Made by a program: the position numbers and the translations under genes | In this document: positions 2,538 to 34,353 of the stretch, piece by piece | Layout of the letters: each line of letters starts with the position of its first letter | Position numbering within the stretch: position 1 is the stretch's first letter | Notes under the pieces: model-generated | Seen by the model: the letters and a program-made list of their open reading frames with translations, nothing else | What the model was told of the DNA's origin: nothing | Databases searched by the model: none | DNA from: a virus | Lineage: Duplodnaviria; Caudoviricetes | DNA length: 64,000 bases | Direction: 5' to 3' (one strand) | IMG/VR virus record: IMGVR_UViG_2675903334_000001

Positions 2538-4291
2538 TGACAACTCCAGTGGCGACGCGCACGGGCGGCAAATGGTACGGCCGGTTCCGGGCATCGGTGC
2601 CTGGTATCGCCTCGGGTGAAGCGTTCGGGGTGCCCGAAGTGGACCGAGGCCCCTTGACGTTGCGGCCTTCCGGGATCCCGTCGGCGGAAGTGTTCGGCAC
2701 GCAGCTGATCACCTACCCGCAGGACGTTGTAGCCAGCGGTATCGCCTCGGCGGAGGCGTTCGGCACTGCGCAGATCGGATTCCGGGTTGCGGTGCCGGGT
2801 ATCGCGTCGGCCGAGGCGTTCGGTGCCCCCACAGTTTCGGTGGGGCCGGTCACCGTCGCGCCGACTGGCATTGGTTCGGCCGAGGCGTTCGGCGCCGCGC
2901 AGGTCGGTCAACGCGTGGCCCCGAGCTCCATTGCGCCGGCGGAAGCGTTCGGCAACCCGAAGGTGAACATGGCCTTGACCGCTGTGGGTATCGCCTCGGC
3001 GGAGGCGTTCGGAACGCCCGCGGTGGGCCGAGGCGCGGTCGGTGTCGCACCTGCAGGTATCGCGTCGGCCGAGGCGTTCGGTGCCGCGGCGATCACGCAA
3101 ACGGCGACCATCTACTACAACACGCAGGGCGTGGGCAGCGAAAACAACGGCACACCGCTGACATGCACCATCAACCCAAACACGGGCGATGACGTGCTCG
3201 TATTCGCCATGCTCGGAGCATCCTCGGGTGCCACCGACTTCTACAAGGCAACGTACGGGCCGAGCAATCTGCCGATGATCTGCGCAGGGCAAGAGCTTTC
3301 GGGCGGTGTTGTCATCGCGGCCTACATCATCCGGGGCGCGCCTTCGGGTAGTGCAACGGTCAACATCACCCGAGGCACCAGCCCGGCACCGTGGGGCCAA
3401 GCGGTCGCGGTGTCGTATTCAGGCGCGGCCGGGTTCGACCCCGCCACGGCAGCAGCGGGAACCGGAACATCGTTCTCGCATCCGGTGACAGTGCCGACCA
3501 ACAGCCGCACGGTGCAAGCCATCACGACCGGGGACGCCGGCGCCACCCTGTCGAGCTTGACAGGTGGTGTGAGCCGCTACCTCGATAACGCGGGATTCTG
3601 CATTCAGTCGATCCGAGACTCGGACGCTTCCACGGCGTTCACCGGCACGTTGAGCAGCTCCCGTGCCTGGGCCTCGATCGCGGTGCCGCTGCGCACCAGC
3701 GCGCCGGGCGGGGTGCGCGCCGGTTACAGCTACGGCTCCACCAGCGTATTGGGCGCCACGACAACAACATTCGATATCTACGCCGCCGCCGGAGAATACG
3801 TCTATGTTCCGGTGATTCAGGACCGTGCCGGTGACCCGTCGTCGGTGACCTGTGACGGTTCGGCGATGACGCTCATCGACACCGCGCCATGGTCGTCGGG
3901 CTCGGGGGCGGCGTACATCAAGATCTACCGCAGCGCGGCGGCGATGAGTTCAGCTGGCCTTAAGACGGTTTCCGTTGTGACATCCGGTAGCGGATGGAGC
4001 CGCAGCGGCGGCGTCGCGGTCTCCGGTGTCACCAGCCCGTCGGGAACCGTCACCAAAACATCGGGCACCAGCTCGCAACCCACACAGGCCGTCACCTGCT
4101 CGGCCGGGCAGATGATCCTGCAAATACTGGCCAGTGCAGCGGCCCCCACGGGCACCGAGGGCGGCACAACGCTGGTCGTTTCCTCAGCTGGCCAAGTGTT
4201 CTGGTCGATCAACATCGCCCTGGAATCAACAACATTCAAGCTGGCCAACACCTCCACCAACTGGGGTGCGCTGGCCTTGGTCCTCAGTTAG
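2534..4291 (+). CDS. Tail fibre-like minor tail protein with GIASAEAFG repeats
   Basis: 585 aa, Ser/Thr/Gly rich, 8 imperfect GIASAEAFG repeats; located in tail-tip cluster. Confidence 0.7.
   Translation: MMTTPVATRTGGKWYGRFRASVPGIASGEAFGVPEVDRGPLTLRPSGIPSAEVFGTQLITYPQDVVASGIASAEAFGTAQIGFRVAVPGIASAEAFGAPTVSVGPVTVAPTGIGSAEAFGAAQVGQRVAPSSIAPAEAFGNPKVNMALTAVGIASAEAFGTPAVGRGAVGVAPAGIASAEAFGAAAITQTATIYYNTQGVGSENNGTPLTCTINPNTGDDVLVFAMLGASSGATDFYKATYGPSNLPMICAGQELSGGVVIAAYIIRGAPSGSATVNITRGTSPAPWGQAVAVSYSGAAGFDPATAAAGTGTSFSHPVTVPTNSRTVQAITTGDAGATLSSLTGGVSRYLDNAGFCIQSIRDSDASTAFTGTLSSSRAWASIAVPLRTSAPGGVRAGYSYGSTSVLGATTTTFDIYAAAGEYVYVPVIQDRAGDPSSVTCDGSAMTLIDTAPWSSGSGAAYIKIYRSAAAMSSAGLKTVSVVTSGSGWSRSGGVAVSGVTSPSGTVTKTSGTSSQPTQAVTCSAGQMILQILASAAAPTGTEGGTTLVVSSAGQVFWSINIALESTTFKLANTSTNWGALALVLS
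2603..3082 (+). repeat. Eight spaced imperfect 27-bp repeats encoding GIASAEAFG
   Basis: Recurring ggtatcgc(c/g)tcggc(g/c)gaggcgttcgg units separated by 11-14 codons. Confidence 0.9.
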
Positions 4292-4940: not shown

Positions 4941-5204
4941 ATGAAAACCATCGTCAAATGGCTCATCAAGACAGCCATCGAAGCCACCCGCGAATACTTG
5001 AAAGAGCATCCCGAGGTCGGCGACGAAGCTGCCGCGGCTGTCGCGACGAAGATCGGTAGCGCACTGCCCAAATTCGTCGACTCGTTGACGAATGCCACGC
5101 CGTGGCAGTGGGACGACAAGGCGCTCGACGGCCTCGCTGAACGCGTCGCGAAGCTGCTGCCCGATCTGGTGCGCCAATTCCTGGGATTCGGTAAGCAGTC
5201 ATGA
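4941..5204 (+). CDS. Hypothetical protein preceding lysin A
   Basis: MKTIVKWLIK...; stop overlaps lysin A start; DDKALDGL resembles DDKLFDGL of 59909-60208. Confidence 0.65.
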   Translation: MKTIVKWLIKTAIEATREYLKEHPEVGDEAAAAVATKIGSALPKFVDSLTNATPWQWDDKALDGLAERVAKLLPDLVRQFLGFGKQS

Positions 5205-9371: not shown

Positions 9372-9899
9372 CTACTTGGGAATCTTCGGCACTGTCGCGG
9401 TGGCGATTTCCATGGCCTTGGCGCACAAATCAATGCCGCCCTTTCCCGTGCCGGCACCGATATTCACGCTCACGGTTGACCGCTGGGCGGGCAGGCTAAC
9501 GATGCACATATCAGGCTCTTGATGCAGCGAAGCATCGACCCCTGCAACGGAAATCTTCTTCTCACCCTTGTCCCACATACGCTGAATGGCAACGTTACTG
9601 ACGAGCAGATTCAGATTCCATATCTCGGTGTTACTCGCAGACTCCCATTCGCACCCGCGCACACCCTTGTTTACGCCGCCGATCGCGAACACCTGCTGAG
9701 GTGTTAGCCCCCAGGTACGTAGCTCGGTGGGCGTGAACGCGTGGCAGGGATCGAACGTTGTGCCGTCACTACGCCCAGAGTCCAGCGGAGCCAGCGAAGA
9801 AGGCGCCGGGGACGCCGGGATTTCAGGACGGTCTGGTTGCCCGCAACTTGCGCAGGTGACCGCTAGTGCCAACGCGAATGCGGCTCGAAGTAGTGACAT
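9372..9899 (-). CDS. DUF3558-like lipoprotein
   Basis: Signal peptide with lipobox-like TCASCG, FDPC motif, conserved Cys pattern, GGGG SD. Confidence 0.7.
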   Translation of the reverse strand: MSLLRAAFALALAVTCASCGQPDRPEIPASPAPSSLAPLDSGRSDGTTFDPCHAFTPTELRTWGLTPQQVFAIGGVNKGVRGCEWESASNTEIWNLNLLVSNVAIQRMWDKGEKKISVAGVDASLHQEPDMCIVSLPAQRSTVSVNIGAGTGKGGIDLCAKAMEIATATVPKIPK

Positions 9900-10012
9900 T
9901 TGGTTTCCCCCTCATTTGGTTTGAATTCAATTTTGTTCACCCCCGTGAAGCTGCATAAACGCTAACACCGAGCGGCGGTAAATGGGGGGATGCGAATCGC
10001 CGTGCTGACCTG

Positions 10013-10204
10013 CTATTCCTCGGCTGGTTCGACGGGGTGTGGGTTGTCGACCCAGTCGGCGGGATCGAGGTGTGTCCATTGGCCGCTGGGGTTGTCGCCC
10101 TCGGCGATGGCCTGTTCGTCGGTCACCGGCGCAGGGTAGAAGTGGATCGCACCCGAGCACGTGCCGCATGTGCCGGTCTTCTGAAAACGCTTGATCACGG
10201 TCAT
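10013..10204 (-). CDS. Small hypothetical protein (CxxC)
   Basis: 63 aa, co-oriented downstream of the immunity gene. Confidence 0.5.
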   Translation of the reverse strand: MTVIKRFQKTGTCGTCSGAIHFYPAPVTDEQAIAEGDNPSGQWTHLDPADWVDNPHPVEPAEE

Positions 10205-10244
10205 CGCTCAATGGTCGCTGACTTGGACCGTGCATCCCGCGCAG

Positions 10245-10964
10245 CTAGTGCGGCACCTCGTCGAGCCCGTTTTCCCGCAGTGTCGCGGTCATCGCCTCTA
10301 CTACCCGTGCTGCTGGCCAGTCGTCCGGCGCGGAAATCAGTGTGCCCCCGGCTAATTTGACGGCGGTCAGTCTGTCAACGAGGTGGGTGATAGACCCGAC
10401 TTCGGTGCTGATCCATGTGCGGTAGCCGACGCCGATTTTCCAGTTTCCGCGCCGGGCGAGCTGCCGTACAGCCAGGTCGGCGAATTCCGACGTCGCCGGG
10501 TTCCACGTCTGGGCGACGGCTGCGCAAACGGCGTCAGCGTCGTTAGTAGTTAGCGCGCCTTGATGCATCTCCCGTAACTGGACAGCCAATCGGCGTGCCG
10601 GAAGACGGCGCCCGACCGCCACGCTGCCCGCCGAGATTCGAACGAGTGGGGCGATACGCGGACCAGTACCTGAGATTGAGAAGCTGTACCCGCTCTCGGG
10701 TTCAGGTTCTCCGTCGATGCCCCTGACGACATTGGCTAGGACGAAGTCGGTCAGCGAATCGGGAAGCTCTGCCCATTCATCGCCAACCGAAACATTCCAT
10801 CCGGTCACGGCGTAGTCGGACTGCAGCGAGTTCAACAGCGCGCCGGTGCGGTCCGCGATCCACTCGGGAGCCTCGCCCGAATCCACCCGAATCGCAAGCA
10901 ACGACGGACGGGCAGCGCCCCACACGGGTCGGTCGACGTCGTTCACAGTGAGCACCTCGCTCAT
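10245..10964 (-). CDS. Cognate immunity protein (Imm52-like)
   Basis: Start overlaps toxin stop by 4 bp; AVAQTWNP...VGYRTW...KLAGGTLI pattern; Imm52 is the established partner of Tox-REase-5. Confidence 0.7.
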   Translation of the reverse strand: MSEVLTVNDVDRPVWGAARPSLLAIRVDSGEAPEWIADRTGALLNSLQSDYAVTGWNVSVGDEWAELPDSLTDFVLANVVRGIDGEPEPESGYSFSISGTGPRIAPLVRISAGSVAVGRRLPARRLAVQLREMHQGALTTNDADAVCAAVAQTWNPATSEFADLAVRQLARRGNWKIGVGYRTWISTEVGSITHLVDRLTAVKLAGGTLISAPDDWPAARVVEAMTATLRENGLDEVPH

Positions 10965-12841
10965 GATTTCGGAGTGTAGATGACGTCGATGTCGTAGATA
11001 CCGTTCCCGATGAACAGTTCACGCAGTGCGCTGGCGCCGTAGGGGTCCGACACGTGCCATTCCAGCCTCGCGCCCGGTGGTAGAGCGGCTAGCTGGCTGT
11101 CGGCCTGCGCGAGTGCCTTTTCAGCTCTGCCTGTCCAGTACGAGTTATCGGGTGCAAACGCCAGCCCGCGCATCCCGTCTTTGGCTTCAAGGAACACCTC
11201 TTGCGGACCACGGAAGGTGTGCCCGTCGTAGTCGATCGTTTTCCCGGTGTCTGGGTTCGTGCTCGTGTACTCGGGAATGTGGCCCTCGGGTGTGCGTTCC
11301 ACACCGCCGATTTGGCCTTGATAGTCCATCCACGGTTTTTCGGGTCCGCGGTTAACGTGGCGCCATCCTGGGTCGGTGTCGCCTTTGGTCCATGTTGATT
11401 CAGGGGTGTGGGGTGGCCATCCGCCGGGGTGGTGCGGGTCGCCGGATGTGTAGTGCTGTCCGCCGCTCGGATCGAAAGTGTCCGGCGCGGGCGGGTGGTA
11501 CTGGGGTGGTGGCGCCGGGTGGTCGGCAGCGGGTGGTGGCGGCGCGGGATGGTCTACAGACGGGGCGGGGTGATCGACGGCTGGCGGCGAGTGGTCGGCC
11601 ACGGGGCCGGGGTGGGCGGCGCTCGGCGCTTCGACTGTTGCGTGGCCCGGTGTTGGGGGTGCGTCGTGTGGAAGGCCCGGCATGTCGAGAAGTCCGCCGC
11701 GGCCTGCGATGGTGGCGTCGCCGAGCAGTCCTCGCGCGCCGGCGGCGGCTTCCCCGGCCAGCGGCCCGGTTACCGCGACGGTACTCGCCTCGGCGAAGCC
11801 GGTCCCTATGTTCTTCGGGATGACCTCGGGATGCTGATAGGACGTGACCGCCTGGTCGATCATGTGCTTGGCGTCTTCGGCCATCCCGAGACCTGGGAAC
11901 AACGTTCTGACGGTCTCGTTCTGCAGGTCCTTGGCGGTACCGATCCACGCGTCTTTGAACTTGTCGACCCCGTTAAGGCCCACCTTGCTTTTGGCGTTGT
12001 CGATCATTCCGTCGAAGGCTTCGTTGACCCCTTTGCCGAACTGGCGGGCAACACCGGTGCCGAAACCATCCGGCGGCTTGGGGGTTCCGGGCAGTTTCTG
12101 CAATGCACCGACGGTTCCGCTGAAACTGCCCGCCTTACTGGGATCGATCGTGACCTTGTCGCTGGTCGGGGGAGTCTTCGGGTACCACTCTTTGTAGTTG
12201 GCCTGAGCGTCGCCGCCGACAGCAGCCGCGGCCTTGGTCGCGCCAGGATCACCGTCATGGTTGGGTGCCGCCGCCACGTTCTGTAGCGCTCCCAGTGCGC
12301 CGTTCGGTTTGATGGCTGAGCCCGGTGCCAGCGGCAGCCCCTGGGCAGCAGCGCCGGACGGGTCCGGAAGGCTTTGGGCGGCTTTGACCGCGGCCTCAAG
12401 GTCAGTGTTCGCGGCGTCCCCGGCTGCCCGGATCTGCCGCAGCGTGTTGGTCAGGTAGTCCAGCTCGTTTTTGTCGTACTTACCGTTGGGTGGGGTGACT
12501 TCACCGGTGTCGTAGTTGATCGTGAATTTGCCGCTGGTGGCATCGTTTTCGATCTTTTTCAGCAGCTGTTGCACGCCCTCGAATTCATCGGCGGCGCGCC
12601 GGATCTTGGCTGCCGCGCCCTGCTGTGCTTGGGCGTGCGCGTCGAGGTACTTGCCGTGCGTGTCGATCTCATGGTGAGCAGCGTCCCCGGAGACGCCTTT
12701 CCAGCCATCACCCATGATGGGCAGCTGCTCGACGCCGCGTTTCATGTCCCGGTTCGCCCCGGCCATCGCGTCGAGGCCGTCTGCGACATCGCGGAACGCC
12801 TGGACCTTGGCGCGCTTGATATCGGCCAGCGACAGCGACAT
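10961..12841 (-). CDS. ESX-secreted polymorphic toxin with C-terminal Tox-REase-5-like nuclease
   Basis: N-terminal WxG (GWKG) helical region, Pro/His linker, C-terminal YQ..I.G...DYDG...FLEAK...QA..Q...LEWHV PD-(D/E)xK motifs. Confidence 0.85.
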   Translation of the reverse strand: MSLSLADIKRAKVQAFRDVADGLDAMAGANRDMKRGVEQLPIMGDGWKGVSGDAAHHEIDTHGKYLDAHAQAQQGAAAKIRRAADEFEGVQQLLKKIENDATSGKFTINYDTGEVTPPNGKYDKNELDYLTNTLRQIRAAGDAANTDLEAAVKAAQSLPDPSGAAAQGLPLAPGSAIKPNGALGALQNVAAAPNHDGDPGATKAAAAVGGDAQANYKEWYPKTPPTSDKVTIDPSKAGSFSGTVGALQKLPGTPKPPDGFGTGVARQFGKGVNEAFDGMIDNAKSKVGLNGVDKFKDAWIGTAKDLQNETVRTLFPGLGMAEDAKHMIDQAVTSYQHPEVIPKNIGTGFAEASTVAVTGPLAGEAAAGARGLLGDATIAGRGGLLDMPGLPHDAPPTPGHATVEAPSAAHPGPVADHSPPAVDHPAPSVDHPAPPPPAADHPAPPPQYHPPAPDTFDPSGGQHYTSGDPHHPGGWPPHTPESTWTKGDTDPGWRHVNRGPEKPWMDYQGQIGGVERTPEGHIPEYTSTNPDTGKTIDYDGHTFRGPQEVFLEAKDGMRGLAFAPDNSYWTGRAEKALAQADSQLAALPPGARLEWHVSDPYGASALRELFIGNGIYDIDVIYTPKS

Positions 12842-12847
12842 GACGGG

Positions 12848-13162
12848 TTACGCCTTGGCCTGCGGTCGGCTGCCCAGGATGTTCACGGCGTTCTGTTCTT
12901 CCATCCCGGCGAAGGCGTACCCGATCTGATCGAACGCGTCGCGGTAATGGGTGGCCTCGTTCTCGACATGCTTGGAATGGCCCTGCCATCCAGTCGACTC
13001 ACTACTGAGCGCCGAGGCCGCACCACCAACCCACCCGGACATGGCCGCACTGATCGCCGCGTGTGCCTTGGCGTGGGCGGCGCGGTGCGCGGCCAGCAGC
13101 CGATCCATCTCGTCGGCGGAACGGTGCAGCAACTCGGGATTGACTTGTAGATGTCCGGTCAT
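12848..13162 (-). CDS. WXG100 (ESAT-6-like) protein
   Basis: 104 aa, central WQG motif, directly upstream of the toxin. Confidence 0.88.
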   Translation of the reverse strand: MTGHLQVNPELLHRSADEMDRLLAAHRAAHAKAHAAISAAMSGWVGGAASALSSESTGWQGHSKHVENEATHYRDAFDQIGYAFAGMEEQNAVNILGSRPQAKA

Positions 13163-13308
13163 CGCACCCCCAGCGGCCCCTAGCTAAAAGATAGGCAGAA
13201 CGTTACACCGAGGTCTAGCAACATGCTTGGGTGCCTTGCTGGTCGGTACGTACCGCCGTTCCGTGGTGCCGTGAGGGGAGTCGGGCCGGTAGTGAGCGGT
13301 GCGCCGGT

Positions 13309-13325
13309 TGTTGACGTGGTCAACA
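13309..13325. promoter_or_regulatory. Inverted repeat TGTTGAC-gtg-GTCAACA, candidate integrase arm-type site
   Basis: Perfect 7-3-7 palindrome about 90 bp left of the att core. Confidence 0.5.
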
Positions 13326-13416
13326 CTGCCCCGGACAACCGCAGGTGGCGAGAGTCAGCGAAAACGTCCGAGAATCGCCAAAACCCTGGTCGGGGTGCAT
13401 AACCGCAGGTCACGGG

Positions 13417-13441
13417 CGGGTTCAATTCCCGGCAGCTCCAC
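13417..13441 (+). other. att core: duplicate of tmRNA (ssrA) 3' end (T-arm and acceptor strand), junction of the two prophages
   Basis: CGGGTTCAATTCCCGGCAGCTCCAC matches the known mycobacterial ssrA 3' end; rest of tmRNA absent; immediately upstream of integrase. Confidence 0.85.
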
Positions 13442-13485: not shown

Positions 13486-13531
13486 ATGCAACGCCATATG
13501 CAACACCTTTCGGTGATATGGTCCGTTGCAT
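13486..13531. promoter_or_regulatory. ATGCAAC repeats (13486, 13498, inverted near 13524) and extended -10 TGaTATGGT of a leaderless integrase promoter
   Basis: Direct reading; -10 ends 7 nt before ATG 13530 and no SD is present. Confidence 0.5.
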
Positions 13532-14615
13532 GGCGTCGATTCGTACGCGGTCGCTCAAGTCCGGCGAATGCTGGGACGTGCTCTACCGCATGGGCGGCCG
13601 CCAGTTCTCGCTGACTTTTGAGAGCTCAGGGGCCGCCGATGCGTTCCGAACGCTCGTTGACGCCCACGGCGCAGAGCGGGCACTCCAGATGCACAACATT
13701 GCGCTACCCGAACCACGCTCAGGCCTGACTGTCGGGAAGTGGGTGACGCATCACATCGAGCACCTGACCGGTGTGGATCAACGGACCGTTCAGGACTACC
13801 TCGGGTATCTCAAGAACGACATCGAGCCCGCATTCGGTGCGATGCCTCTAGAGGCACTGTCGCGGGAGGACGTCTCGCTGTGGGTGCAATCGTTGGGAGA
13901 TAAGCACGCCGCCAAGACCGTCGCCAATAAGCACGGCTTCCTCTCGGCCGCGCTGGCGACGGCGGTGGCTGCGGGGAAGATCGCCAGCAATCCGGCCGAC
14001 CGGACCCGCCTGCCGCGCGGCATTGGTCACGAAATGGTCTTCCTCACCAAGAGCGAATTCGCCCATCTCAACGAGCAGGTCACCGAGCCATGGCGCCCAC
14101 TGCCCGAGTTCCTGGTCACCTCCGGAGCCCGTTGGGGTGAGGTAAGTGCCCTCAAGCCCTCGGACGTGGACCGCGACGCTGGAACCGTCCGCATCACGCG
14201 GGCGTGGAGGCGCGACAACCACGGATACCGCATCGGACCACCGAAGACGAAGCGGTCGGTCCGCACGATCAACGTTCCCGGGTCGGTGCTTGAGAAACTC
14301 GACTACTCAGGGGAGTGGCTGTTCACCAACCCCGGGCGAGGTCGACGTGCCGAGGGTGGCCCGGTGCGTGCTGTGAACTTCCGCGCAAACGTCTGGACGC
14401 CGGCCGTCGAGCGAGCTGAGCTTGACCCGCGGCCAAGGATTCACGATATGCGGCACACCTGCGCGTCGTGGCTCATCGCGGCCGGCGTTCCGCTGCCGGT
14501 CATCCAGCGGCACCTCGGGCATGAGTCCATCACCACAACGGTCAATACGTATGGGCACCTTGATCGGTCCTCGATGCGGGCTGCGGCCGAGGTGATGGAG
14601 AGGGCGCTGGCTTAA
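13530..14615 (+). CDS. int: Tyrosine integrase
   Basis: SGARWGE (R), RIHDMRH (HxxR), LGHESITTTVNTYGH (H/Y) catalytic boxes; adjacent to att. Confidence 0.97.
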   Translation: MASIRTRSLKSGECWDVLYRMGGRQFSLTFESSGAADAFRTLVDAHGAERALQMHNIALPEPRSGLTVGKWVTHHIEHLTGVDQRTVQDYLGYLKNDIEPAFGAMPLEALSREDVSLWVQSLGDKHAAKTVANKHGFLSAALATAVAAGKIASNPADRTRLPRGIGHEMVFLTKSEFAHLNEQVTEPWRPLPEFLVTSGARWGEVSALKPSDVDRDAGTVRITRAWRRDNHGYRIGPPKTKRSVRTINVPGSVLEKLDYSGEWLFTNPGRGRRAEGGPVRAVNFRANVWTPAVERAELDPRPRIHDMRHTCASWLIAAGVPLPVIQRHLGHESITTTVNTYGHLDRSSMRAAAEVMERALA

Positions 14616-14672: not shown

Positions 14673-15452
14673 GTGCCGAACATCGATGTGAATGGGCAGT
14701 CCATCCACTACACCGACAACGGGGCAGATGGCCCCGTGATCCTGGCGACGCATGCGACGCTGATGGATGTCGTTTCGTTGGACAAGCTGACGAAGCGCTT
14801 GCCAGGCAGAGTGATCGCGTTCGATCTGCGCGGCCACGGTCAAACCGTCTACGACCGGCAGCCCTATGACTACCTTGACGTGGCGCAAGACGCCCTCGGC
14901 TTGATGGATCAGCTTGGCGTTGAACACTTCACGTTCCTAGGCGAGGGCCAGGGCGCCGTGGTTGCCCTGCGTACCGCGCTCGCTGCGCCGGAGCGTGTCG
15001 ACCGACTGATCCTGATCGGACCGACCGCAGATGCCGCTTCCGACAGCGAGAATGCCGCACTGGATGCGTCCATGGACGTTTGGTGCACACTAGGTCCGGA
15101 CCCGGAGGTCTATCACCTCGTCGCGCAGTATGCGACCGGTGGCAGCCCGGAGGACGCCGCCGATCTGCTGCGGCGGTGGCAGTCGTCCGCGTGGCGTGAC
15201 TATCGCCCTGCCGCGACCGCCCTCGCAACCCGCCCCAGATTCGTAGATCAACTGCACGAAATCACCTGCCCGACTCTCATCGTTCATGGCACCGGCGACT
15301 TCTACGTGTCCATCGATTTCGGGCGGGAGGTTTCCGAAAATTTAGGTGGACCAACGGAATTCGTGGAGCTGCCCACTGAGCGTCAGGCGATCACCGTCGC
15401 GTTTGATCCGCGTGTAGGCGACGCTGTGCTCAGCTGGCTTGGCGATCGATAA
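14673..15452 (+). CDS. Alpha/beta-hydrolase-fold protein lacking catalytic Ser and His (pseudoenzyme)
   Basis: DLRGHG, PERVDRLILIG, CPTLIVHGTGD fold motifs; elbow reads GEGQG instead of GxSxG; RQ where GH is expected. Confidence 0.85.
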   Translation: MPNIDVNGQSIHYTDNGADGPVILATHATLMDVVSLDKLTKRLPGRVIAFDLRGHGQTVYDRQPYDYLDVAQDALGLMDQLGVEHFTFLGEGQGAVVALRTALAAPERVDRLILIGPTADAASDSENAALDASMDVWCTLGPDPEVYHLVAQYATGGSPEDAADLLRRWQSSAWRDYRPAATALATRPRFVDQLHEITCPTLIVHGTGDFYVSIDFGREVSENLGGPTEFVELPTERQAITVAFDPRVGDAVLSWLGDR

Positions 15453-16143
15453 CTGCCCCGAACAGTAGAACGCCATCATGCATCGATGAGCGCCACGCCC
15501 TCATATCGACCGTCACGATATCTTCGGTGTCGAGGTCGCGCAGAACCCACGGTCGCGTCGCGGGGTCGATCGGTATTATCTGCGAATCCCATTGCCGCTT
15601 AAATACTTTGATCGGCATGAGGCTACGCACAACCGACTGTAACCCAAGGTCGCTCGGTGCTGCGGCCAGTCCGAAACGCAACAGGCCGACGCACCATTCC
15701 GAGGTCTCGTCCCAGTTCTGGATTACATCGAGCGCCTTGGTTGAGTGGTAATGCCAGTGCACCAGGTTGGGCGTGATCCACACACCCTTGAACAGGCGCA
15801 TGAATTCATCATTTGCTTCCTCGACCGTCCACCCCGCGCTCATCCATGCCGCGGGATGCGGGTTGACTGCCTGTATGTACCTGCGGATATCCGGCATTGG
15901 CATTGCGGTCTCCGTAGCCATCTTGCCCCCGAGTGCATGTAAGTAGTGCGATTCCCATGACGATAACCCCAGCGCGCGCGAAATGGCGGCGAGTGCTGTT
16001 GCTGGCGGTACGTGACTGTTGGACTCGACCTGCCGCACCCAAGATGCCGAGTAGCCGGTCAGGTCCGCGAGCTCCCGCTGGCTTGTACCACGTCGACCGC
16101 GCGCAGCACGCAAGAATGACCCAAGATCATTGCCTGCGAACAT
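15430..16143 (-). CDS. XRE-family HTH regulator with MmyB-like (MLTR) ligand-binding domain
   Basis: LGSFLRAAR...SQRELADLTGYSASWVRQVE HTH, then PAAW...EAN...F...PNLV...W pattern of MLTR_LBD. Confidence 0.8.
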   Translation of the reverse strand: MFAGNDLGSFLRAARGRRGTSQRELADLTGYSASWVRQVESNSHVPPATALAAISRALGLSSWESHYLHALGGKMATETAMPMPDIRRYIQAVNPHPAAWMSAGWTVEEANDEFMRLFKGVWITPNLVHWHYHSTKALDVIQNWDETSEWCVGLLRFGLAAAPSDLGLQSVVRSLMPIKVFKRQWDSQIIPIDPATRPWVLRDLDTEDIVTVDMRAWRSSMHDGVLLFGAVIDRQAS

Positions 16144-16160
16144 ACAACAAACGTAAACAC

Positions 16161-16172
16161 TCAAGAGCTTGA
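16161..16172. promoter_or_regulatory. Palindrome TCAAG-AG-CTTGA in divergent regulator/membrane-gene promoter region
   Basis: Perfect inverted repeat just upstream of -10-like TACGTT (minus strand) that lies 6 nt before ATG 16143. Confidence 0.45.
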
Positions 16173-16342
16173 CCGATACCTCAGCCTGATGATTGGCTGT
16201 AAATCCGAATCTCGCACGACTCAGGGGGGAACCGAGAGATGTTGAGCACCTGAATAATTGGCTTGCTGAGCGAGCCCACACCCTCCGGTTTCCGGTGATT
16301 CGTTAGAACCTCTCCCATCCGCTCCGTTCAGGAGGTATGTCA

Positions 16343-17122
16343 ATGCACGCTGCCCTCATCACGTTCACCGTGGCGACCATCTGCTGGTCGCTATGGATAC
16401 GGAGGGTGACATGGACCCGGCGAATGGAAGTTGCTGCCACCCTCAACATTGCCCTACAGGCCGCAGCACTATTCCTGATGTCTCCGCTGGCCTCAAGTAC
16501 TATCGGCCTCGCCCCACACGCGCTCACCGGCTGCTGGAATCTTGAGGATTTGTTAGCGCATGACCTCTATATCGTGGCCGCCTCGGCCATCGTGTACCAC
16601 ATGCTCCTGCGGCTAGATCGGCAGCAGTTAACGCGCCGATTCCGGTTGCACATCGAATTACCTGCGACGATAAGCCTTCCGATCATGTTGGCGCTATTCA
16701 CATTCGGGCCAGGTGCGCAGGAATACCGTGCCGACTTTTTTCGCGCCCCGACTGACTGGTGGCTCAATGCCTACTGGTGGGTGATATGCGGCACCTTGAT
16801 TTACCTGCTGGGGTACAGCGTGCTCGCCCTCATACCGATGTGGCACGAGCCATCAATCCGCGGACTATCTGCGGCGTACATGCTGGCGGCTGGCGCGGGG
16901 ATCGTTGCCTGCCTCGCCCGGATTGCGACGACCCTGCTACCAGCGGCAATGCAGGACACCTCGGGAGCGTCGCTTGCCGTATGGGTGCCGGCCTGCCTGT
17001 GCGGGGCTGGATATGCGGCGATCTTGGCCCAGTCTTGGCTAACGAAGAATCGGGTTACGGGGCGTCAGTCGCAGGGTCGTATACGTCCCGATGGACAGGA
17101 GTTTTCCGGGGCCGCGTCTTAG
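16343..17122 (+). CDS. Polytopic membrane protein (MAB_1171c-like family)
   Basis: GGAGG SD 7 nt before ATG 16343; about 7 hydrophobic segments; WNLEDLLAH, DFF...W motifs. Confidence 0.7.
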   Translation: MHAALITFTVATICWSLWIRRVTWTRRMEVAATLNIALQAAALFLMSPLASSTIGLAPHALTGCWNLEDLLAHDLYIVAASAIVYHMLLRLDRQQLTRRFRLHIELPATISLPIMLALFTFGPGAQEYRADFFRAPTDWWLNAYWWVICGTLIYLLGYSVLALIPMWHEPSIRGLSAAYMLAAGAGIVACLARIATTLLPAAMQDTSGASLAVWVPACLCGAGYAAILAQSWLTKNRVTGRQSQGRIRPDGQEFSGAAS

Positions 17123-17450
17123 TCGTGGTGCGGCCCTGCGCTTTTGGGGCACTCTCGGTACCCCCAGTGAATCCGGGGAAGCCTGGCTGTGGTCCGATGA
17201 TCCCGAATTCAACCTGCAGGTTGATGAAGCCGTCGTCTCCGAGCTTGTAGTAAGCGGCGATCTGCCGCAACTCCTCTGCGTTCGGAAAGTCTTCGGCGTC
17301 TCTGCGGCCCGTTGTCCGGTTGTCTCCGCGATATTGAAATGGGCTGAGTCCTGCGGCTTCGTGCACTTCGGTGACACGAACGTCAGCGCCGACGATCTCG
17401 GCTTGCAAGAACGTCTTGAGGTCGCGCCCTCTGCGATCGGTTCTCGGCAC
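17055..17450 (-). CDS. Immunity repressor (XRE-like), probably leaderless
   Basis: Divergent from Cro-like gene; FPNAEELRQIAAYY motif; SigA promoter ends 6 nt before GTG. Confidence 0.7.
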   Translation of the reverse strand: MPRTDRRGRDLKTFLQAEIVGADVRVTEVHEAAGLSPFQYRGDNRTTGRRDAEDFPNAEELRQIAAYYKLGDDGFINLQVEFGIIGPQPGFPGFTGGTESAPKAQGRTTTKTRPRKTPVHRDVYDPATDAP

Positions 17451-17486: not shown

Positions 17487-17599
17487 TCGAGCTGACGTGC
17501 TGAAATGCGGCAAACGGCGCTCTCCAAATCGTGACTTTCCGCAAAATAGTGCTGGAATTCCGTAACGCGATGCTAGTCTTCCAGCTGTGAGTTACGGAC
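17471..17599. promoter_or_regulatory. Candidate operators TTCCGNAA (17471, 17537, 17558; variant 17592) and extended -10 TGCTAGTCT for cro
   Basis: Repeated quasi-palindromic octamer overlapping both divergent promoters. Confidence 0.55.
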
Positions 17600-17868
17600 T
17601 GGAGTGGCTCCCCCAGGGAGTCCAAAACACATTGGCCGTCAACGGAATTGAGACGGCCGCCCAACTGTCCCGAGCCATCAAAGTCAGCAACTCGGTTGTT
17701 TACGACGCGTTCGACAAAGACTGGAAGGGGCGGGCCACGCCCACCCTGATTGACGCGATGTGCCGGACGTTCGGCGTCCCGATGCATCAGCTTGTCGTGG
17801 AGCCGATGACCAAGGTCAAGAGAATCCCCGCCGTCACTAGCGGCCGGAAGCGCCGGGCTACCGCATGA
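17587..17868 (+). CDS. Cro-like HTH protein
   Basis: ETAAQLSRAIKVSNSVVY HTH; first gene of early lytic operon. Confidence 0.7.
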   Translation: MSYGLEWLPQGVQNTLAVNGIETAAQLSRAIKVSNSVVYDAFDKDWKGRATPTLIDAMCRTFGVPMHQLVVEPMTKVKRIPAVTSGRKRRATA

Positions 17869-18164
17869 ACGTCGAGACATTCTCACTGGCCGAAGTCGCA
17901 GCCGCAGCGCTCCCCAAGCACTGGAAGCACCCCGAGCGGTGGCTCCGTGAGCGGCTGAACCGTGGTGAACTTGTCGGCTACCGTGTCGGACGCGAATGGC
18001 GGCTCACTCGCGACCAGCTCGACGCGTTGATCGCGAAGTGCACCAACGTGGCCGCACCCATCGCTGACCCCGCACCGGCCGCTGATCCTGCACCTGCGCC
18101 GGTGGCGGATCCGTCAGCACTCGGTCTGTCTGCGCGGTCCCGTCGAAAGCTGATCAGCGCATGA
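17865..18164 (+). CDS. Excisionase-like winged-helix DNA-binding protein
   Basis: FSLAEVA...WLRERLNRGELVGYRVGREWRL pattern of Xis/HTH_17. Confidence 0.7.
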   Translation: MNVETFSLAEVAAAALPKHWKHPERWLRERLNRGELVGYRVGREWRLTRDQLDALIAKCTNVAAPIADPAPAADPAPAPVADPSALGLSARSRRKLISA

Positions 18165-18931
18165 GCGGGAGCCTGGCGGTATCGGTCGCCCCATTCGATG
18201 CCCTACGCCACGTCACCCCAAACGGCCGCGAGTACTGGTCGGCGCGCGATCTGATGGCGCCATTTGGATACGGTGCGGACTGGCGCAACTTCGTTGCCGC
18301 GATCAGCCGCGCAAAGATGTCCTGCAATAACTCGGGCACAGACCCGGTGGTGAATTTCGTTGGCGCCACCAAAATCACTGGTACAAAGCCTGCCGAGGAC
18401 TATCACCTGTCGCGATACGCCTGCTATCTCGTAGCGCTCAATGGCGACCCACGCAAGCCTGAGATTGCCGCCGCACAGACCTATTTCGTCATCAAGACGC
18501 GAGAGGCCGAGACCGCAACCGCTGCTCCTGCGCTCTCGGGCCCCGACTTGCTCGCGGCCGCCGTGCTCGAAGCTCAGCGGATGATCGAGGCCAAGGATGC
18601 CCTGATCGCCGAGCTGGAGCCGAAGGCCGACCTTGCGGACACCTACCTCACCGCCCAGGGTGGGGCTCGGCTGATCCGAGAAGCGGCCAAGCTGCTCGGT
18701 ATGCGCGAGCGTGAGTTGCGCCAGTGGCTCGTCGACGAACGGCTGCTCTTCGCCAAGCATGCCCCGTGCGGGGCCATGCAGTACGACCACTACGCACAGT
18801 TCGCTCACTATTTCCAAGCGCACGAGCACGTCGTGGCTCATTCATGGGGCAGTTGTGCCCACTACACCCTGCGCATCTTGCCCCGTGGAATGGAACTCAT
18901 CACCAAACGCCTGGGCGGCAAGCCCAAGTAA
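18161..18931 (+). CDS. Antirepressor (DinD/BRO-like N-terminus, KilAC/ANT C-terminus)
   Basis: EYWSARDL...LSRYACYLVALNGDPRKPEIAAAQTYF and LEPKA...IREAAKLLG motifs. Confidence 0.9.
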   Translation: MSGSLAVSVAPFDALRHVTPNGREYWSARDLMAPFGYGADWRNFVAAISRAKMSCNNSGTDPVVNFVGATKITGTKPAEDYHLSRYACYLVALNGDPRKPEIAAAQTYFVIKTREAETATAAPALSGPDLLAAAVLEAQRMIEAKDALIAELEPKADLADTYLTAQGGARLIREAAKLLGMRERELRQWLVDERLLFAKHAPCGAMQYDHYAQFAHYFQAHEHVVAHSWGSCAHYTLRILPRGMELITKRLGGKPK

Positions 18932-32000: not shown

Positions 32001-33041
32001 ATGGAGTTACCGGCCAATTCAATCGACAGTGCAGGAAAAGGCCCCCACTCGCCACTGGAGCGATTCATGCTCAGCGTCCGAAGCTTGGTAGACACAGCTA
32101 AGACCTACTACCGGTGGCAGAAGGAGGTCGGCGATCACCTGAGGGCACAAGGCCAGGCCGCCAAGTTCTACCGTGCTTTACCGCTGCTTTTATTTAGCTA
32201 TTTACTTTTGATCGCCTCGCCCTGGATGCTAAACGTGACCGCGATGAAGATTGCCGAACTTGAGGTGATTCACATTCCTCGTCTGTTCGCGCGGGTTAGT
32301 GGCGACCTGGCATTCTATCCGAATGGTTATTCCTTACTGGGGGCGATAATATATCTGCCAGTTCTCGTAGTATTCGCGCGGAAGAAAATCTCACCGCATA
32401 TCCGAGATTCATCTGGCTGGCGCAAAGCGGGGTATTGCATAGCCCTGCTTCTTTACACCGTATGGTCCGCCCTACTGCTATTCGCCGTCGCACGAATGGG
32501 GCTGCTGTTCGGCATCCAGTTCATGCTATCCACAGTACTTTGGATACTGATACTGTGCTTCTGGCTCACTCAGATCGGAATATACTTACTCACATTCACT
32601 ACATGGTTCTGGATTATGAAGATTGTTTCAATCTATAAACCATGGCTTGGCCTAGCAATAACTGGGCTGGCTTTCTATTATGGTGTGAACATAGCCCGCT
32701 TTCTCGCGGATGCTTCAAAGTTTGCATACCCCGCCAATCTCCACCACCTGTTCGGTGTTATTAGCGTCAGTGTGGTAGCTATCCAGTGGTATGCGACTGT
32801 CTGTAATTCCGTGGCCACGGCTATACCGTGGATTGTTAAATTCCGCATTGTTCTAGGGCTGCGGCGCGAGGGAGATTCATTCCGTGAAGGCTCCTACTAC
32901 CAGCGATGGTGCAACCAGGACCGGGACGAGTGGCCAACGGTTCGACAGGCTGTTATCGATGGGTGGAGGACGCGAGGCGAAAAATCAGACTCCAACCTCT
33001 GGCAGGTGACCCGTGAGGCATTTCGGGAGGTATTCCACTAA
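32001..33041 (+). CDS. AT-richer multi-TM membrane protein (moron)
   Basis: 346 aa, about 7 hydrophobic segments; visibly lower GC3 than neighbours. Confidence 0.75.
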   Translation: MELPANSIDSAGKGPHSPLERFMLSVRSLVDTAKTYYRWQKEVGDHLRAQGQAAKFYRALPLLLFSYLLLIASPWMLNVTAMKIAELEVIHIPRLFARVSGDLAFYPNGYSLLGAIIYLPVLVVFARKKISPHIRDSSGWRKAGYCIALLLYTVWSALLLFAVARMGLLFGIQFMLSTVLWILILCFWLTQIGIYLLTFTTWFWIMKIVSIYKPWLGLAITGLAFYYGVNIARFLADASKFAYPANLHHLFGVISVSVVAIQWYATVCNSVATAIPWIVKFRIVLGLRREGDSFREGSYYQRWCNQDRDEWPTVRQAVIDGWRTRGEKSDSNLWQVTREAFREVFH

Positions 33042-33086
33042 ACGTGCATCAGGGCGATTTCGGCCCCCTGGCGTAGAACCAGCCCC

Positions 33087-33409
33087 ATGGACGCGCGCAA
33101 GGCCATCGGCGAGATCATCGAGAGGCATCCCGAACCTGTTCAGCCTCACGCGCAAGGTGACCGTCGGTGCCGAATGTCGGCAACCTGCGCCTGCGCGTAG
33201 ACGATGGTCGCGATCTAGCCTTGTCCGTGTACCGATCACCGCGCGACCGTGGGCTGACGGCGAAGTGCGTATCTTCGCCACGGGGCGACGAGGTGGCCAT
33301 AGCCAACGTCCCGTCCATCCTTCCCATGCAGGATGCCCCCGCCCTAGCCTCGGCGCTCGCGGCCGCACACACTGCATGGCAGCGCAACAAGCGCGGTGAT
33401 GCTCACTGA
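33087..33409 (+). pseudogene. Frameshifted phage gene remnant
   Basis: MDARKAIGEIIE, then IPNLFSLTRKV...VPITARPWADGEVRI, then SPRGDEVAIANVPSILPMQDAP in three successive frames. Confidence 0.5.
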
Positions 33410-34353
33410 TTACGGGGCGTTAGCTTGTTCGATTTGGTTCGGTTGCAGCGCCAGCACAGCGTCTGCAGGTTCTCCACGGCTGTCATGCCGCCCTTGGATA
33501 CCGGAATGATGTGGTCCACCTCAAGAAGGAGGTGCGGCTCAGCGGCGAGGGACACCGAACAAGATTGGCACGTGTAGTTGTCTCGGGACTTGATGGTTGC
33601 GCGCAGTCTGGAGGTCATCATGGCGCGCTGCCCGGCGACGCTCTTTCGCCATCGGATCTTCTGCGAAAGGGTTTCTACGAGCACGTCGATCGTTGGGGCA
33701 TTCAACGTGATGGTGGCTCGCTGAGAGCTATTTCCGCCCGCGCTGACGTACTCAAAAATGTACACGGGGTACGGAACGGTAATCGTTGACAGGTTCACCC
33801 CCACATGCCGCATGAACGCATCCTTGTAGAGCCAGAGAATAAACGCCGGCGGGTTGATCGATTCGGTGATGACCTGCTCGCGCTGTTGAAGGTTGGCGAG
33901 GGCGGCTTCGAGTCGGGTGATGCTATTACCTAGATCTTCGGCCTGGGCGAGTTGGGTCTCATTTGGCTTGATGTTGAAGTACTTCATCAAGTACTTGAGG
34001 GGGTCGGCGCTAGCGTTGCGCACGACTTGCAGCGAGCAGTTGTGCACGTTAGGTGCTTGATAGCTCGCCATATTTCGGTCGCGGTGGTAGTTCCAATGGC
34101 TAGTGTTCTGGAACGATGCGAGGTGCGCATGCATGCCCGTGGGCGAGAAGCCGAGTTGGAATAATCCCTTGCTGCGAATTTCCTGGGTGTAGGCGGCAAG
34201 TTCGTTGTGCTCTGCGACGAATGTCGCGATGTTGTTCTTGTGCGCCAAGAACTCTGGGCTACGGAAGTACACCTCTCTGAGGATGAACGTAACAGCCCAG
34301 AACAAGCCGAATGCCCCCACGAGGACAGCGGCAATCGTAATAATGGCATCCAT
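33403..34353 (-). CDS. Membrane-anchored HNH endonuclease
   Basis: N-terminal TM; C-terminal RDNYTCQSC...EVDHIIPVSKGG...NLQTLCWRCNRTKS. Confidence 0.88.
   Translation of the reverse strand: MDAIITIAAVLVGAFGLFWAVTFILREVYFRSPEFLAHKNNIATFVAEHNELAAYTQEIRSKGLFQLGFSPTGMHAHLASFQNTSHWNYHRDRNMASYQAPNVHNCSLQVVRNASADPLKYLMKYFNIKPNETQLAQAEDLGNSITRLEAALANLQQREQVITESINPPAFILWLYKDAFMRHVGVNLSTITVPYPVYIFEYVSAGGNSSQRATITLNAPTIDVLVETLSQKIRWRKSVAGQRAMMTSRLRATIKSRDNYTCQSCSVSLAAEPHLLLEVDHIIPVSKGGMTAVENLQTLCWRCNRTKSNKLTPRNQ

Follow-up and report, generated by a model that had tools for sequence, protein, structure and literature searches.

A serine-less alpha/beta-hydrolase-fold gene and a convergent MLTR regulator gene form a mobile cassette in mycobacterial prophages and chromosomes

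Why does a prophage carry, between its integrase and its immunity repressor, a gene for a hydrolase whose catalytic residues are gone? The question arises from a 64,000-nucleotide stretch of viral DNA (IMG/VR record IMGVR_UViG_2675903334_000001; the whole stretch is called the window here), which is part of a genome of the M. abscessus/chelonae group (5.57 Mb, single contig) and whose genes have their closest relatives in Mycobacteroides. The gene encodes an alpha/beta-hydrolase-fold protein and overlaps tail to tail with a gene for an XRE-type helix-turn-helix (HTH) regulator of the MLTR (MltR/MmyB-like) family; the regulator gene is in turn divergent from a gene for a membrane protein with about seven transmembrane (TM) segments. 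The original prediction, made from the sequence alone, joined all three into one signalling module. The anatomy, conservation, selection, co-inheritance and ancestry of these genes lead to a different answer: what is new here is a subfamily of MLTR regulators with an enzyme-derived convergent partner, and it is a two-gene unit, not a three-gene system.

Loss of the catalytic residues in a conserved hydrolase fold

Membership of the protein in the alpha/beta-hydrolase fold was evident from a Pfam Abhydrolase_1 match (54.8 bits; cut-off 25.8) and from an AlphaFold2 (AF2) model (pLDDT 96) with canonical core strands and a helical cap at residues 124-196. The top Foldseek matches of this model were esterases and enol-lactonases (E 1e-18 to 1e-19), with haloperoxidases among the neighbours. 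The best-scoring named single-domain family was the PcaD equivalog TIGR02427, at 63.1 bits against a cut-off of 255.85, and the bifunctional PcaDC model scored higher. PADLOC, NCBIfam and PHROGs gave no functional name beyond the fold, and the current annotation of the pair reads 'esterase/alpha-beta hydrolase' and 'HTH protein' only.

The catalytic positions were set by alignment to solved structures (including 3om8) and to 87 active relatives. Gly92 occupies the nucleophile position (GEGQG vs. G-x-S-x-G), Gln238 stands where 90% of the active relatives have the catalytic His, and the oxyanion HG is replaced by His27-Ala28, the clade having H-A, H-P or H-N here and not H-G. The acid, Asp209, is kept, and almost every intact member of the clade has D or E there. 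Beside the missing Ser stands Glu91, which does not vary within the clade and takes the place of a Met in active relatives; mapping of clade-specific conservation was limited by the different depth of the two clades. The coordinates, the HA, GEGQG and HGTGD motifs, the Gln in place of His, both gene overlaps and the XRE plus MmyB-like architecture of the regulator had all been read correctly in the original prediction.

Absence of the nucleophile is a property of the whole clade. Ser was missing in about 50 relatives, down to about 38% identity, the motif being GEGQG or, in one subclade, GEL[FLY]S. This survey covered six distinct M. abscessus prophage homologues, two chromosomal paralogues of the same genome, 27 clusters from a 5.8-billion-protein collection, 16 full-length IMG/VR prophage loci, and the copies of M. 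franklinii, Mycobacteroides sp. CBMA271, M. chelonae S00154 and M. ostraviense. The catalytic His was replaced by Gln in most members and retained only in M. marinum P0023 and P0024 and in the prophiGD03-1 type, which indicated that Ser was lost first.

Furthermore, the hydrolase-like gene is under strong purifying selection. Its pairwise ratios of nonsynonymous to synonymous substitution (dN/dS, omega) were 0.08-0.12, with one unsaturated pair (dS 0.34) at an omega of 0.11, and those of the regulator gene were 0.06-0.20. The clade-wide loss of Ser together with an omega of about 0.1 showed that the gene is not a decaying copy. Had homologues kept an intact triad, the copy in the window could have been dismissed as degenerate; inside the clade they do not, and the earlier view of a hydrolase without catalytic residues that is nevertheless maintained holds.

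It is therefore extremely improbable that the two genes are decaying passengers without a current function. Individual broken copies do occur: a nonsense codon interrupts the hydrolase-like gene of prophiGD02-2, GD90-1 and L111, this gene is deleted in L121, a frameshift and a regulator deletion are found in M. chelonae S00154, and M. ostraviense has both genes in damaged form. However, most copies, that of the window included, are intact, omega stays at about 0.1 over the whole range of dS up to saturation, and the substitutions are conserved across paralogues that are only 38-42% identical.

Very improbable, in our view, is also a protein that is still an enzyme with a non-canonical mechanism, for example one working through Glu91 or by a cofactor-free lyase- or oxygenase-type reaction. 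The invariance of Glu91 in place of the Met of active relatives would suit such an enzyme, as would the strong purifying selection, a 45%-identical relative with G-E-S-G-G that could be an intermediate, and the presence of Gly at the nucleophile position in 13 of 124 related cluster representatives, many of which retain the His. Yet the nucleophile, the general base (His to Gln) and the oxyanion Gly changed together in most members, and the GEL[FLY]S subclade has Leu at the nucleophile position. Moreover, the nucleophile elbow of the alpha/beta-hydrolase fold directs the residue just N-terminal to the nucleophile out of the pocket, which argues against a catalytic Glu91.

A separate lineage of the same hydrolase family (L030, L033, L036, L039, L041 and L047, all from genomes of genus g24), which adjoins guaA, has Ser replaced by Ala (GGTAQGGF), HG by HE and His by Leu or Gln, and looks like an independent loss of catalysis. 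Open frames of 800-900 aa near this lineage were discarded as an artefact, being the open antisense frame of guaA.

The convergent pair, its mobility and its ancestry

Profile and model comparisons identified the regulator as a bona fide MLTR. The protein matched HTH_31 at 50.1 bits, above the curated cut-off, and MLTR_LBD (PF17765) at 46.2 bits (cut-off 26.3); a profile of the subfamily found MltR (3pxp) as its top match in the PDB, at 7.7e-11 over both the HTH and the ligand-binding domain, and with the AF2 model (pLDDT 92) Foldseek returned 3pxp as the only full-length match (5.6e-10 over 259 columns). The open frame extends over 15430-16281 on the minus strand, and homologues place the true start codon (ATG) at 16143. 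In the public annotation the regulator (P0181) has 157 aa and consists of the ligand-binding domain only; the open frame and the homologues support 237 aa including the HTH.

The regulator thus shares with MltR/MmyB-like proteins (PF17765; 3pxp) an N-terminal XRE helix-turn-helix and a PAS-like ligand-binding domain. The ligand-binding domains of MLTRs are PAS-like, the MltR crystal contained myristate, a lipid-like ligand in the cavity being known for 3pxp only, and described MLTRs are paired divergently with short-chain or medium-chain dehydrogenase/reductase (SDR/MDR) genes or with genes of antibiotic clusters (PMC3406030). In contrast, the subfamily of the window has a convergent, 3'-overlapping alpha/beta-hydrolase-fold gene and is carried on prophages and plasmids. 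The divergent neighbour, a membrane gene in the window and in many prophages, is not kept in other contexts; the neighbour that is kept is the convergent hydrolase-like gene.

A survey of co-occurrence bore out the coupling of hydrolase and regulator that had been anticipated, and showed it to be tight and ancient. Searches by tblastn with either protein returned the identical set of eight phage records, both genes were present in all 16 IMG/VR loci, and the genome that contains the window has three hydrolase and MLTR pairs. The Ser-less pair was always convergent, with a 3' overlap of 23-59 nt. In addition, the pairwise identities of the hydrolases and of the regulators correlated (r=0.94 over 17 pairs), indicating that partners were not swapped. 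BLAST similarity at the DNA level between different contexts extended from the hydrolase start to about 30-60 nt upstream of the regulator start and no further. This confinement pointed to a mobile unit of about 1.5 kb, which sits in the accessory region of several prophage backbones that are not related to one another. Its distribution is patchy, since a search of 60 other sampled species of the genus, with the regulator as query, did not find the Ser-less pair.

The two further Ser-less pairs of this genome lie on the host chromosome, at G000:C1:5506951-5508411 and 4679146-4680625 (L019 and L020). One is near dnaB/rplI, in synteny with M. franklinii, and the other is beside fadB2/icl. The prophage copy could cross-talk with these chromosomal pairs.

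The ancestry of the cassette was traced through relatives with an active-type hydrolase. Of 1.84 billion representatives searched, no more than 13 gave scores better than 1e-30. The nearest Ser-bearing relatives (31-40% identity) have GMSQGG, HG and His all present. A Ser-bearing hydrolase gene is convergent with an MLTR gene in seven loci from further genera of the Mycobacteriales and on plasmids of Rhodococcus, for example pREL1, with stop-to-stop distances from -35 to +12 nt, and the MLTR of these pairs aligns end to end with the regulator of the window. The same two families in the same abutting or overlapping layout in this outgroup indicated that the cassette of hydrolase and MLTR is old and mobile. 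Catalysis was lost later, in the lineage now present in M. abscessus/chelonae-group genomes and their prophages: the Rhodococcus and other Mycobacteriales hydrolases keep Ser, His and HG, whereas the clade of the window has lost them. The literature searches turned up no described function for these active-type pairs, no paper was found that links MmyB-like regulators with hydrolases, and papers on M. abscessus prophages do not discuss the present genes.

Active pairs in Rhodococcus and other Mycobacteriales, and Ser-less pairs on chromosomes of the M. abscessus/chelonae group and in at least five prophage backbones, form a natural series that makes the fate of an enzyme after it has lost catalysis directly testable. 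To our knowledge, a role of pseudoenzymes as sensors or allosteric partners is well established in eukaryotes but has seldom been documented in bacteria or phages. MLTR regulators, as far as we know, are abundant in actinomycetes, but ligands or partners are known for hardly any of them; a conserved partner protein would offer a way to both.

The membrane gene, the spacer and the promoters

We next consider the membrane gene, the third member of the system originally proposed. Its product belongs to phrog_950 (8.1e-56 over 238 of 272 positions) and also matches 'Gp55 protein' clusters of the Atlas. The roughly seven TM segments expected earlier were found as six clear hydrophobic segments plus a weaker seventh, with a confident 7-TM-like Atlas model; an obligate link to the pair was not borne out. 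The gene occurs in 221 mycobacteriophage records, most of them without the pair. Phages of cluster E (Highbury) and cluster F (Patt) have it as the next gene downstream of the immunity repressor and ahead of the integrase, and prophiT49-1 has integrase, membrane gene and repressor in this order, at 70% identity to the window genes, and no pair. The pair, for its part, lacks the membrane gene in prophi62-2, GD08-3, GD11-3, GD05-3 and L105-107, in all chromosomal copies and on plasmids. Because each is found without the other, the membrane gene is a member of the immunity cassette and not an obligate partner of the pair, and the gene orders place the pair as an insertion between the integrase and this cassette.

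These results make it quite improbable that the hydrolase-like protein, the regulator and the 7-TM protein form a three-part system feeding a small-molecule signal into the lysis-lysogeny decision or into lysogenic conversion. Such a system would agree with the contiguity of the genes between integrase and repressor, with the divergence of regulator and membrane gene, which is the usual geometry of an MLTR and its target (PMC3406030), and with the recurrence of the order hydrolase, regulator, membrane gene in prophiGD02-2, GD90-1, GD91-2, GD03-1 and 13 of the 16 IMG/VR loci. The spacer between regulator and membrane gene is also conserved between the window and L115, and the model of the membrane protein resembles HisKA_7TM sensor-type proteins, the 7-TM domains of sensor kinases (structural TM 0.60). 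However, in the more than 200 phages that have the membrane gene without the pair it is tied to the repressor and not to a regulator, 6 prophage loci have the pair without the membrane gene, and the subtypes of the pair reassort independently of the membrane/repressor subtypes, the L115 hydrolase being 42% identical to that of the window and its membrane protein 77%. No operator was shared with the repressor/Cro region, and no evidence ties the pair to the lysis-lysogeny switch. The accessory region between integrase and repressor was correctly recognised as the position of these genes; the single three-gene module and its input into the switch are not supported.

The spacer contains a palindrome, TCAAGAGCTTGA, at 16161-16172, which had been pointed out before. 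A 5+5 inverted repeat in a 193-nt spacer is within chance expectation, and of two exact copies of TCAAG-NN-CTTGA in the window the second lies inside an open reading frame (ORF) with an HNH domain in the island at 32001-34353. Of 11 cassettes compared, 7, from two subtypes, share the element GTCAAG-N11-13-TAC(G/T)TT upstream of the regulator gene and on its strand. The GTCAAG arm is thus conserved in relatives; the second arm is not, and the perfect palindrome is specific to the window. The palindrome was rejected as an operator on account of the unconserved arm and of the copy inside the HNH gene, and the conserved GTCAAG half is probably part of the regulator promoter or operator. A stronger candidate for an operator or hairpin is a 26-bp palindrome, GGGGGGCTACAGATCTGTAGCCCCCC, which precedes the regulator start by about 25 nt in the spacer between regulator and membrane gene of prophiGD02-2 (L003 ~4000-4030), where it is perfect, and of prophiGD91-2 (L004 ~5090-5120), where it is one base shorter; it is a much better candidate than the palindrome of the window.

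The predicted promoter of the regulator is of the leaderless type, its TACGTT -10 element ending 6 nt before the ATG, and each gene of the pair appears, from its upstream sequence, to be read from a leaderless-type promoter of its own at one outer edge of the cassette. No k-mer was common to the two upstream regions. This arrangement bears on the rather unlikely alternative that the hydrolase-like protein is stand-alone cargo, which sequesters a toxic ester, lactone or antibiotic or blocks a superinfecting phage, while the MLTR is only its switch and not a binding partner. A separate promoter for the hydrolase-like gene would fit, as would ancestral pairs that look like an enzyme with its own regulator, the weak family similarity to macrolide esterases and enol-lactonases, and a locus that is the usual site of prophage defence or conversion genes (PMC7542560). 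The convergent geometry leaves the regulator no control region in common with the hydrolase-like gene, however, and sequestration normally demands high expression. Moreover, PADLOC-DB defence families gave no match to the hydrolase-like, membrane and repressor proteins and matched the regulator via its HTH only.

Possible action of the pair, and its surroundings

The explanation we prefer, and to which we give about an even chance, is that the cassette is a mobile two-gene regulatory moron in which a non-catalytic hydrolase-fold protein serves as partner of the MLTR regulator. The hydrolase-like protein, which is cytosolic, would bind its former substrate, or the product, without turnover. A lipid, ester or lactone-type molecule is the most reasonable guess for this ligand, because the MltR ligand-binding domain was crystallised with a fatty acid and the nearest named families are enol-lactonases and esterases. 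It would act together with the regulator, by presenting or sequestering the ligand or by docking on the PAS-like domain, following the logic of RsbQ and RsbP. The regulator would control its own leaderless promoter and, in prophages with the divergent membrane gene, probably also that gene or host genes. In mycobacterial prophages, expression in lysogeny is typical of genes in this region (PMC7542560), and the prophage cassette would be a lysogeny-expressed accessory moron between the integrase and the immunity cassette, outside the lysis-lysogeny switch.

We also speculated, by analogy with known receptors, that the Ser-less protein may be a receptor or ligand chaperone seated on the PAS-like domain of the MLTR, the two forming a sensor that has become mobile on M. 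abscessus-group prophages and that, in lysogens, would retune the 7-TM gene or the regulons of the host paralogues on a lipid or lactone cue; this more specific form is unlikely. In Bacillus subtilis the alpha/beta hydrolase RsbQ is required to activate its PAS-domain partner RsbP. There, too, a small alpha/beta-hydrolase-fold protein is encoded beside a protein with a PAS-like sensory domain, which by analogy offers a plausible model for the hand-over of a ligand. Unlike the protein of the window, RsbQ has an intact catalytic triad; its gene is co-transcribed with that of its partner, a phosphatase and not a DNA-binding protein, and sequence links the two hydrolases no further than the common fold.

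The plant receptors D14, KAI2 and GID1, to which the original prediction had likened the protein, offer a functional analogy only. They perceive a small molecule with a capped alpha/beta-hydrolase fold, GID1 is non-catalytic, and D14 and KAI2 were among the Foldseek matches. D14 and KAI2 keep an active triad, however, and their TM values (0.76-0.83) were no better than those of ordinary esterases (0.83-0.87); in addition, the pair has no F-box or DELLA-type partner. Among phage genes, gp30/gp31 of Butters and gp30/gp31 of Sbash are similarly small self-contained sets, which differ from one related prophage to another and occupy the variable region next to integrase and immunity cassette (PMC7542560). 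There is no homology with them, and the present cassette, being found also on chromosomes and plasmids, is not phage-specific. Accessory genes of M. abscessus prophages bear on phage therapy and on strain behaviour.

Several observations weigh against a working partnership of the two proteins. First, the regulator is kept beside a truncated or nonsense-mutated hydrolase in prophiGD02-2, GD90-1, L111 and L121 and may therefore work alone. Second, linkage alone explains the co-divergence of the two genes. A search for longer proteins found no fused hydrolase-MLTR protein, which is weak evidence; the long hydrolase matches were tandem hydrolase repeats or rhodanese fusions without a DNA-binding domain. 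Third, canonical MLTRs control the divergent neighbour and not a convergent one (PMC3406030), and the regulator is divergent from the membrane gene in the window as well as in the four named prophages and 13 IMG/VR loci that share its gene order. Control of the membrane gene by the regulator is thus possible in prophages that have both.

The features at the left end of the prophage are collected in Table 1.

Table 1. Features of the left prophage region, in window coordinates
Feature	Coordinates	Strand	Size or supporting match
tmRNA-3'-like attachment-site fragment	13306..13441		left edge of prophage
Tyrosine integrase gene	13518..14615	+	Pfam Phage_integrase 2.6e-21; phrog_1 integrase 3.9e-69
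Hydrolase-like gene (alpha/beta-hydrolase fold, non-catalytic by residues)	14673..15452	+	259 aa
XRE-HTH + MmyB-like (MLTR) regulator gene	15430..16143	-	237 aa; convergent with hydrolase-like gene
Divergent regulator/membrane-gene spacer	16144..16336		193 nt
7-TM membrane gene ('Gp55'/phrog_950 family)	16337..17122	+	261 aa
Immunity-repressor-like gene	17055..17450	-	70% identity to annotated immunity repressor of prophiT49-1
Cro-like regulator, excise and antirepressor genes (early lytic operon)	17587..18931	+	phrog_1702, phrog_1840, ANT/Bro-N

Rightward of the attachment-site fragment the order is tyrosine integrase, hydrolase-like, regulator, membrane, repressor-like, Cro-like, excise and antirepressor genes. 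Both overlaps are tail to tail: 23 nt (15430-15452) between the hydrolase-like and regulator genes, and 68 nt (17055-17122) between the membrane and repressor-like genes. The attachment-site fragment shares about 80% identity with the terminal 136 bp of several M. abscessus prophage records, and its sequence reads like a tmRNA 3' end; neither ARAGORN nor Rfam detected a complete tmRNA or tRNA in the window. A sigma-70-like promoter was predicted for the repressor-like gene at 17486-17457, and a consensus scan found no terminators and no further promoters of this type.

To the left of the attachment-site fragment, within 9372-13441, lie a WXG100 gene and a gene for a 626-aa toxin with a Tox-REase-5 tip. 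By this position they are outside the integrase side of the prophage, which fits two prophages stacked at one tmRNA site. The island at 32001-34353 has a low GC content (0.52-0.60) and carries a 346-aa ORF without a Pfam match and, on the minus strand, a 316-aa ORF with a C-terminal HNH endonuclease domain. Finally, three other backbones, prophiGD02-2 (L003 1399-2421), prophiGD91-2 (L004 2478-3500) and L002 (4146-4667), have an extra gene just upstream of the hydrolase-like gene, for an acyltransferase-3 membrane protein or an annotated N-acetyltransferase, which may be another accessory gene of the region.

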